From Candidatus Micrarchaeota archaeon (lineage in GTDB: Archaea > Micrarchaeota > Micrarchaeia > Anstonellales > Bilamarchaeaceae), in the NCBI GenBank assembly GCA_038046805.1, contig JBBSVO010000006.1, forward strand, positions 98,097-162,096: a stretch of DNA of 64,000 nt. The letters run 5' to 3'. Shown in pieces: positions 30,001 to 33,000 of this stretch. Position numbers: made by a program. Numbering within the stretch: position 1 is the first letter of the stretch; every line of letters starts with the position of its first letter.

Positions 30001-33000
30001 CTGGTCGTGAGTGGGGCTCAAAGTTAACTGATTTTTGTTAATCTTTTTTTAACCTTTTTTGTTAAAACGTGTGGATTATAAATTGTTTTATTCAATGGAT
30101 ATATGTGAATATATGGAAAGAACAAAGGTATTCATAGTTTTGGGAGAACACGGTGGCCATGGTAGTCCTGCCAATACGCGATTCTTCAGGCGTGCAGTCT
30201 GCTCTTTCTTAGATGAGATACTTCAGGATGGGAAAAAAGCAACGATGATATATGAAACTGCGTTATACAATTATCCGTTTGGGTGTATGCCGGGAAAGAG
30301 TCTTAATGCATCTCGAATCCAGGGCTACTTGGACGAAGCCGAACCCAAAAAACATGAAACGATGGCGGCTTTTCAAGCCACGCTTTCTAGTTTGGAGTCG
30401 CGTGCAAATGAAAATTTAAACGCAATTGTCGGCAAAGGAAATCCACTTAGCCTATTTGATGGACTTGGCTTTGAAGATATGGTTCTTGCCATGAATCGCA
30501 GAAATATTTGGCAAGTCAACGTAGTCATTGATCCGCAAAACGTAGATGCAATGTATGCGACATGGGCGCTTAAACAGATTGAAGGCCTGGTTTCAACAGC
30601 AAGAATTTCTATGGCAAGATTGTGTAGCAGTGAAACGACTGAGCTCATAAAGAAATGTTTGAGTGCAGAAGCTGAGTTTTTGGTTTTGCATGATCGTCAG
30701 GTATTCTCATTGGTTGAACGGCTAAGAGCTCAAAATCCAGAAATGCCGGTAATAATTGTTAGGGGTAGTGCACATGCAGGGATTTCCAGATTGTTTGATC
30801 CTAAAGAATATGATGTTCGGATTGAACAGGATGGCAGAATCATTCCAGGGTTTGGTCCTGATGCGGCTTCAAAAAGATATATCGGAGAAAATTTGACCGA
30901 ATGTGAATTGAATGGTTATGCGAAATTAACACAGTCATTTCTGCTGTATCTGAACGACCTTTCTCGCGGATTACGCGGATTTGTAAAAATGGTTTTGGTT
31001 TTTGTCGGGGCACAGGATGTTCTATTCAGGTGGGCTAAAAAATATGCAATAAAGCAAAATCCTGAAATTGCACAAGAACTTGGTTTATCTACTTAACCTC
31101 ACGATACAAAACCCGAGACCGAGTGAACGTCCGACAGAACGAAGCGTCGTTCCATAGGACACTAGACAAAAAATAAAATAGCGGGGGATGGATTGACAGC
31201 TTCACTGGAAATTTTTGGTTGCCAGACCAAAGCTTTTGAACCATCGACCTCCGGGTTATGAGCCCGGCGGGAACTATGGTTAGTGCGACCTAAATCGCAA
31301 AAATCTCCAAGCTCCCCCACCCCGCTAACGTAAAATGTTATTTGTCCACGAGCATTTAAAAATACGTGAGCGCAAGCGTTCCAAGATATGCGAGCAAAAC
31401 ATATCTCGCAGTTCTTCCAATCACACAAGCCAGCAAAAACCTTTTCCAATCGATTCCGATACTCCCAGCAGCTATTCCTGCAACATCAAACGCGGGATTA
31501 GGAATTGCGGACAAAACAAAAATCGCAAAAAAATCATTTTTCCTGATCCATTCCTTCCATTTTTTGAATCGTCCGTCCAATTCTTTCTTTACAATGTTAG
31601 ATGCCCCGGCGCCAACAGAATATCCGGTTATTTCTCCAAGTCCAGAACCAATGCCTGCAACAACTCCGACGATATATGGGTTAAGCACTCCTCCAATTGC
31701 GATTACTGCCGCCCAACCCGGCGCAGGAATAAAAATAAGCGCGGAACTTAATAAAGAAATTACGAATACTCCGGCGTATCCCAGTTCTTTGAGTTTTTCT
31801 ATATCTGCACTAATATACCAAATTGCTGCAATTACAATCAGTGCAAACAGCACCTGAAGTGCTCCTTTCGTTCGCTCATCCATAAGAATTAGTCTCTGCC
31901 AGTCTTTTAAAATTGTTCTGCATCCAAATATTATTCTCATTTGGGCTCGTAGCTCAGAAGCAGAGCACTCGCCTTGCACGCGAGGGGCCGAGGGTGCGAG
32001 AGCTTTGAAATCACCGATTTCAAAATTAGTCGGCAAAGCCGTCTATCCCTCCGAGTCCATTTTGAAGAAATGGACTGACTTGAACCGCAGTTCAAGCCGA
32101 AGTCCATTTTGAAGAAATGGACTGACTTGAAAGATTCGTCTTTCAAGCTGAAGTCCAATTTTTTTCTTTGGAAAACAATGCGCATTAACAGCGTTTTTTT
32201 GCCCCGCTGTTAATTGCGGACAAAATTTATGAAACTTTTTCCTCCATCAAAACCTTTTTAACCATTTCGCAGGTATTACCCTCAATTGTTTGAAATTCGG
32301 GGTGTGACAAATGAGACCGATATACATTGACGAGGACGAAGATATGGACGACGATGACTTTGACGAAGAAGAGTGGGATGAAGAAGGTGGCGAAGAAGAC
32401 GAAGAATTCTAATCCTCACTGGTGTTTTCATTTTTTGTTTTTTGTTTTTTAAAATCCGAGACGGGGTATTGAAAACCAACTTTTATATTATCTATTATAC
32501 CTTAGAATATATTATAACGGGCCCGTGGCGCAGCCTGGATAGCGTAGCAAGGCTTATTAAGTAAGTTTGTTAATAAGCTCTAGAAGCCTTCTAAGCTGAC
32601 GGTCATGAGTTCAAGCACAAGCCTTTTGGATTTCAGAAGCATTAAGACAAACGGCTAGTGTTTACCCAAAATCATGGAGAAGCATAATCAACGCGAAACT
32701 TGTGGTGTAAGAAAGAACATATCTCATCGGGCCCGAAGTTTATTATCCTGCAAAATTAGAAACAATAATGCGAAACACAATTTAGGTGAGTCTATGCAAA
32801 ACAACAAAGTAGGTGAGGCCATCTCTCTTTTGGATATGCTCTCAAATGAATCATCAATTCCAAAGAATATACGAAAAGCACTTTCAGATGCCAAACAAAG
32901 GCTTGAATCCAATGAAGAACTCAATGTTAAGGTCAGTGCTGCAGTTTATATTATAGATTCTATAAGCGATGATATCAACATGCCAGCTCATGCACGAACC

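Follow-up and report, generated by a model that had tools for sequence, protein, structure and literature searches.

The contact between G18 and pseudouridine 55 (Psi55) of tRNA is taught as invariant, and for that reason it has so far offered little natural covariation. Two reviews treat the pair as conserved or universal (PMC7912444, PMC4810234). In the standard elbow, residue 18 intercalates between nucleotides 4 and 5 of the T-loop and is joined to Psi55 by one hydrogen bond (PMC4810234). The UGAAA T-loops of FMN riboswitches have G at T-loop position 2 and take an A from another loop at that same place, between nucleotides 4 and 5 (PMC3764141). The alanine tRNA genes described here resemble these loops in both respects, but they encode tRNAs going to the ribosome and not a riboswitch, their C56 still pairs with G19, and the geometry is taken over by analogy.

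Some non-proteinogenic tRNA-Gly of Staphylococcus carry G55. Like our genes they are natural tRNAs without G18 and U55, but they are extra isoacceptors for the cell wall that can lose G19 and C56 (PMC4574755), whereas here G19-C56 is kept and no Ala tRNAs other than these were found; neither an extra isoacceptor nor a loss of G19/C56 was seen among the Ala tRNAs of the genome studied. The tRNA-Pyl and type II mitochondrial tRNAs also function without G18 and Psi55, but there the whole G18G19/TPsiC set is lost, whereas here one pair is swapped (PMC7609411). The intron-rich tRNAs of ARMAN-2 Micrarchaeota, substrates of the epsilon-2 endonuclease, share non-canonical introns, including those at 59/60, and relaxed bulge-helix-bulge (BHB) motifs with our genes (PMC3239211); G55, in contrast, is absent as a term from the main text of that paper. 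Compared with canonical tRNA-Ala (RF00005), the cloverleaf, G3:U70, A73, U8-A14, G15-C48, G19-C56, U54-A58 and G53-C61 are the same, and the difference is that A18 and G55 replace G18 and U55.

No report of natural A18/G55 tRNAs was found in the open literature. By term searches, G55 and A18 are absent from PMC7912444, G55 is absent from PMC9023262 and PMC6602477, and PMC7609411 holds no A18/G55 report; older tRNA surveys and the ARMAN supplement, which were beyond reach, may mention the pair.

Results

The tRNA-Ala genes

The window, i.e. the whole stretch of DNA that was analysed, comprises 64,000 nucleotides from a Candidatus Micrarchaeota archaeon (assembly GCA_038046805.1, contig JBBSVO010000006.1, positions 98,097 to 162,096). 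This genome is called G000, its sister species G098 and related genomes likewise by G and a number; C4, C6 and the like are contigs. The coordinates are collected in Table 1.

Table 1. Features of the tRNA-Ala(UGC) gene, its surroundings and other tRNA genes of the same genome. Positions count along the window unless a contig is given.
Feature	Position	Strand	Basis or remark
tRNA-Ala(UGC), whole gene	31943..32059	+	direct reading of sequence
5' exon, tRNA positions 1-59	31943..32000	+	sequence; joined exons pass ARAGORN
Acceptor strands	31943-31949 / 32052-32058	+	sequence
G3:U70, Ala identity pair	31945:32056	+	sequence
7-nt D-loop AGAAGCA	31956..31962	+	A14 G15 A16 A18 G19 C20 A21; sequence, fold
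A18 in place of G18; G19	31959; 31960	+	
Anticodon UGC (Ala)	31975..31977	+	U33 and A37 alongside; sequence
T-loop U54 G55 C56 G57 A58 G59	31995..32000	+	sequence; uninterrupted copy in CGC gene
G55 in place of U55	31996	+	sequence
Archaeal intron at 59/60, 45 nt	32001..32045	+	sequence, BHB
Intron BHB strand opposite tRNA 54-57	32040-32043	+	3/4 pairs; G55 faces U, U54 mismatched (U54.C)
3' exon, tRNA positions 60-73, from U60	32046..32059	+	U70 at 32056, A73 at 32059; CCA not encoded
Initiator tRNA-Met, intron-split	31179-31326	-	
tRNA-Arg(UCU), intron-split	32519-32735	+	
31-base repeat, two copies	32054-32084; 32101-32131		
Third AGTCCA of repeat region	32152		repeat region 32054-32157
tRNA-Ala(CGC)	C6:71794-71946		
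tRNA-Ala(GGC), permuted	C4	-	
tRNA with C55, one of Gly(CCC), Lys(UUU) and Val(GAC)	C9:12249-12453		
tRNA with C55, another of the three	C11:145-335		
tRNA with C55, the last of the three	C6:88119-88245		

The tRNA-Ala(UGC) gene of the window has A18 and G55 where the canonical elbow has G18 and U(Psi)55. The other elbow bases G19-C56, U54-A58, G53-C61 and a purine at 57 are kept, and also G15-C48. Psi55 is impossible in such a tRNA, because G and not U stands at 55. At the intron junction a BHB is formed with three of four central pairs and an intron helix of 6 bp. Two public runs, each of a different study, hold contigs that match the gene over its full length with 0 differences (one of the runs may be the source sample), and a near-identical Ala(UGC) gene with an identical intron start was found in another Micrarchaeota record (L051).

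Tested as unspliced DNA, the intron-bearing gene scored 25.8 bits against RF00005 (gathering cut-off 29), and its minimum free energy fold was not a cloverleaf, which is uninformative. When the exons were joined, the UGC, CGC and GGC genes each gave 72 nt, with U33 and a purine at 37, that ARAGORN named tRNA-Ala; the UGC and GGC tRNAs folded into the cloverleaf, and the CGC tRNA folded otherwise. The survey's finding had stated that Rfam and ARAGORN accept the Ala genes; this holds for ARAGORN on joined exons, but on the raw window both gave 0 genes. The alanine identity pair G3:U70 and also A73 are present in the sequence.

The CGC gene has the same D-loop as the UGC gene, and its T-loop UGCGAGU is uninterrupted by an intron, so that G55 does not hinge on the splice assignment and cannot be put down to splicing. 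Permuted at 59/60, the GGC gene has introns at 15/16 and 37/38. Its leader pairs at all four of positions 54-57, including G55-C. The survey had regarded its D-loop junction as ambiguous; it is less so, since a BHB placed at 15/16 gives the D-loop AGUAGCA with A18. Direct reading bore out the G55 T-loop in all three Ala genes, and the D-loop AGAAGCA, with A18 and G19 and without GG, in the UGC and CGC genes. The T-stem GAGGG is common to all three Ala genes both here and in the sister species, and most relatives have GGGGG. A canonical Ala gene was not found in this genome, which is 86% complete.

The intron ends at 59/60 of Ala(UGC) are near-identical in another genus (G087, C65:19869-19966, and L051), and the sister species has a different intron there. 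A permuted Ala(GGC) gene occurs in the sister species as well (C61, L502), with a leader that pairs perfectly with 54-57 and introns unlike those of the gene studied here. The two intron-split tRNAs that flank tRNA-Ala(UGC) (Table 1) keep U55, and both were missed by ARAGORN and Rfam on the raw window. Just 3' of tRNA-Ala(UGC) lies a 31-base repeat, the first copy of which begins with the tRNA's own 3' end, and each unit contains short hairpins. The region has the look of inserted mini-elements with duplicated targets.

Our census of the tRNAs of this genome, at a score of 12 or more, recovered 32 genes, i.e. 27 with U55, 3 with C55 and 2 with G55, and a pyrimidine at 55 was kept in 30 of these 32. 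The survey's T-loop count among 39 tRNAs (34 UUC, 3 UCC and 2 UGC) is consistent with this as far as the 32 recovered of the 39 allow. The G55 T-arm motif had 34 matches genome-wide, only 5 of them outside long ORFs, and 3 of these 5 were the Ala genes. ARAGORN at a relaxed threshold made 834 calls, mostly spurious.

The three C55 genes that had been listed as Gly CCC, Lys UUU and Val GAC agree in number with the three of our census. The Lys(UUU) tRNA keeps G18-G19; in the sister species the orthologous gene carries U55. The D-loops of Gly(CCC) and Val(GAC) are split by introns. C55 together with G18 was also seen in Lys(CUU) of G072, in two Ala(CGC) genes of family f2 and in one Ile gene of Patescibacteria. 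As C55 co-occurs with G18 in several tRNAs it seems uncompensated, and it appears to be a matter separate from the A18/G55 swap.

Covariation of positions 18 and 55 in Micrarchaeota

Within the family (99 genomes), an Ala(UGC) pattern matched in 38 genomes, 35 with A18/G55 and 3 with G18/U55. A pattern for the T-arm alone, which demands C71-C72 and leaves tRNAs not starting with G1-G2 outside the sample, gave 132 G55 rows in 65 of the 99 genomes, all ending in U70-C71-C72. All 30 G55 loci of the family that were read are Ala genes, and most matched relatives have a T-loop of the A18/G55 type without an intron.

The scan was extended to the 401 genomes of the phylum. Here 133 Ala genes were matched: 102 had A18/G55, 30 had G18 (28 with U55 and 2 with C55), 1 had A18/U55 and none had G18/G55. 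Every G55 row (102/102) has a 7-nt D-loop with A18. G55 Ala genes occurred in 72 of the 401 genomes (44/75 in f1, 1/17 in f6, 16/94 in f12, 4/83 in f13, 6/9 in f14, plus G000) and the 31 non-G55 rows came from 27 genomes, the remaining genomes, in which introns or gaps probably kept the pattern from matching, being unscored. That both partners of G18-Psi55 have changed jointly while G19-C56 is kept, as the survey proposed, is strongly supported by covariation in these far larger samples. To regard the swap as a peculiarity of the tRNA-Ala of one family was too narrow, as it is the majority Ala state among the matched genes of the phylum and is also found outside it.

Nine relatives had been named in the survey, and their states were found again: G098, G087, G080, G073, G055, G096 (T-arm only) and G051 have G55, and G090 and G060 are canonical. 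The statement on canonical genera needs one correction: g20, the genus of G090, holds both states, since G090 and G092 are canonical, G094 is A18/G55 and G088 has G55. G072 (g15) represents a further canonical genus. CGC and GGC Ala genes were not found in G072, G090, G092, G094 and G060.

An AlaRS tree was made with FastTree from this single gene of 31 genomes picked for contrast, of which 29 tips were labelled by whichever Ala gene matched (two matched genomes yielded no locus and one had no match). The elbow states interleave on the tree, with 7 changes over the 29 tips; 7 or fewer changes were obtained in 101 of 2000 shuffles. The canonical pair G090/G092 is sister to G094, which has A18/G55.

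Two further observations concern the same positions or their neighbours. A15 stands for G15 in the Ala genes of G060 (C37, L489, with a matching U48) and G087 (C63, L491, with C48 kept). Thr is a second recurrent site of A18: among Micrarchaeota genes (L033, L190, L246), Thr(GGU) has it with G55 and Thr(CGU) with U55, and it is also found in Woesearchaeota, Pacearchaeota, Patescibacteria and Elusimicrobiota.

Occurrence in other archaea, bacteria and viruses

In a Nanoarchaeota-type phylum (that of a Woesearchaeota record), 301 genomes gave 111 Ala rows, with 97 G18/U55, 9 A18/G55, 4 A18/U55, 1 C18/U55 and 0 G18/G55. Three of the genomes carry both Ala forms, which implies that one AlaRS serves both. 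As A18/U55 intermediates are seen in archaeal Ala genes and G18/G55 is unseen, the gene sequences suggest that G18A came first and U55G second.

A collection of 185,579 prokaryote species was then scanned for tRNAs that combine G55 with a GCUC/GAGC D-stem, which gave at least 124 loci. Among the matches listed, 109 of 127 G55 genes had A18-G19 and 18 had GG, some of the latter also being readable as A18-G19-G20; among the well-paired ones (n = 119) the numbers were 105 and 14. The anticodons of the matches listed included CAU (31), NGC (18), GAU (14) and CCU (10), and their lineages Patescibacteria, Elusimicrobiota/Endomicrobium, Gammaproteobacteria, Myxococcota and DPANN archaea. In the reverse scan, for an AG D-loop with any base at 55, the matches listed were 123 loci with 125 genes, 102 with G55 and 23 with U55 (18 A18/U55, 5 with GG). 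The forward and reverse samples share most genes and overlap relatives of G000. In viral contigs, among the matches listed, A18 was found in 118 of 125 G55 genes, and in 77 of 83 when distinct well-paired genes were counted. The patterns cover only tRNAs with the GCUC/GAGC D-stem and short or no introns, and kin are not independent.

In five other genomes 45 tRNAs were matched, with one A18/G55 tRNA per genome (5/45) and G18 in the other 40. One of the five is an Ile(GAU) gene directly adjoining Ala(UGC), which we take to be the usual rRNA-spacer arrangement. A18/G55 is found again in bacterial and phage tRNAs (CAU, Ile, Arg, Thr and Pro) and in Ala tRNAs of Nanoarchaeota. Going by the matches listed, this form of housekeeping tRNA is rare but keeps recurring, and outside archaeal Ala genes the coupling of 18 and 55 is not absolute. 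At default settings ARAGORN recognised intronless A18/G55 genes, 99 of 102 from genomes and 80 of 80 from viral contigs; the Ala genes of G000 are hidden from it by their introns.

Viral contigs and one Segatella genome also carry an A18/G55 tRNA-like family with an enlarged or shifted anticodon arm (L373, L374, L386, L392, L428, L446, L460 and L067), for which the anticodon AAG read at a fixed position is probably wrong.

Discussion

As far as gene sequences tell, the tRNA elbow has a second form, A18/G55, which is real, covaries strongly and is present in all alanine tRNAs found here. The Ala genes of G000 must work, because no other Ala tRNA was found in this genome, and they are very probably working tRNAs with an A18-G55 contact. 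Their sequences have the features of a UGNRA motif, i.e. a U-A closing pair, G at position 2, a purine at position 4 and an available A in the partner loop. The T-loop would be of the UGNRA type, in which A18 would intercalate between R57 and A58 and touch G55 on its sugar edge, in the way of the intercalating A of FMN riboswitches with their UGAAA T-loops. From this shared combination we infer, by analogy, that A18 and G55 touch and that this A-G contact preserves the fold; the L shape would be maintained without a pseudouridine at 55.

Concerning the cause of the swap, we lean towards near-neutral drift plus homogenisation, because the states flip on the tree and coexist in genomes, and the three T-stems change together (G000 and G098). 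The swap would have gone via a tolerated A18/U55 step, may have flipped several times and in both directions within Micrarchaeota, and may have spread to all three Ala genes by paralogue homogenisation, i.e. gene conversion or re-duplication. In other tRNAs of other lineages it would have arisen independently. Taken as a whole, ordinary working tRNAs with an alternative elbow and a near-neutral history are the likely explanation. That G55 was found on Ala genes only in the family is not predicted by pure drift alone.

A18-G55 could be a selected second elbow design, with host-dependent microbes and phages switching one tRNA family to change its readers; in Micrarchaeota it would mark all Ala tRNAs, together with the loss of a G18-reading lysine of C-Ala or as an escape from nucleases or modifying enzymes that read the T-loop. 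We consider this reading possible but rather doubtful.

A narrower reading is Ala-specific co-evolution, in which the elbow changed with the C-Ala domain of AlaRS (or with AlaX), making A18/G55 a selected alanine identity feature. C-Ala of Caenorhabditis elegans reads G18 via K934 of its GG motif (PMC10485164), and the occurrence of G55 on Ala genes only, in the family, fits such a scheme. Taking the residue before the GGG of C-Ala to match K934, we found K or R in 8 of 14 G18 genomes versus 4 of 17 A18 genomes (Fisher p = 0.075, with kin not independent); K is found in G090 and G092, and N in G094, their A18 sister. This is a weak lead. K occurs, however, with A18 in G048, G058, G064 and G080 and is lacking with G18 in G060, G072, G208 and G251, and no column of the AlaRS alignment separates the two states (best split 0.69). 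Genomes with both Ala forms, and the bacterial swaps on tRNAs of other amino acids, also speak against co-evolution, which we consider unlikely. A loss of the C-Ala or editing domain is rejected, since a full-length AlaRS goes with either state (matched in 32 of 33 genomes); in G000 it has 910 aa with tRNA-synt_2c, tRNA_SAD and DHHA1.

Toxins that cut T-loops exist. The swap could let the tRNA evade a nuclease aimed at tRNAs, or a toxin that modifies them, which recognises the UUC T-loop or G18, in conflict with hosts, competitors or viruses. Among the matches listed it is over-represented in viral contigs and in host-dependent lineages with small genomes (Patescibacteria, DPANN, Endomicrobium), and an arms race could lie behind the change of a single isoacceptor family in each lineage. 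Yet the enzyme is hypothetical, relaxed selection in small populations predicts the enrichment equally, and 30 of the 32 recovered tRNAs of G000 keep a pyrimidine at 55. We see this as quite improbable.

An adaptation to lost pseudouridine-55 synthases, giving a modification-free elbow, is very improbable. TruB was not found in two of the five other A18/G55-bearing genomes, both of them Patescibacteria, and TrmY (PF04013) and Trm56 (PF01994) were not found in the 86% complete G000. However, TruB_N is present in three of those five genomes, and even the genomes in which TruB was not found have U55 in most of their tRNAs. For G000 itself the loss of Psi55 synthase is rejected, as it has Pus10 and a TruB_N gene of the Cbf5 type. 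An artefact (a misplaced splice site, faulty assembly, pseudogenes or an RNA edited back to U55), for which the raw gene missed by ARAGORN and Rfam and the U54.C mismatch in the intron BHB might speak, is hardly credible, since the CGC gene and most matched relatives show the loop without an intron, independent contigs agree, the BHB strands fit G55 (G55-C and 4/4 pairs in GGC, and C opposite G55 in G094 and in GGC of G098) and no canonical Ala gene was found.

If the Ala genes are ordinary working tRNAs with an alternative elbow, the "invariant" G18-U55 contact has, in the gene record, a second natural form that recurs in many small-genome microbes and phages. The recurrence of A18/G55 in essential tRNAs supplies covariation for the elbow and links it to the UGNRA T-loops of riboswitches. 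These tRNAs are natural substrates for probing the role of Psi55 and the reading of the elbow by the ribosome, RNase P, T-boxes and AlaRS, and sister genomes with opposite states (G090/G092 vs G094/G088) make the cause of the swap testable. For engineered tRNAs, A18/G55 may also be of use as an elbow that needs no modification.
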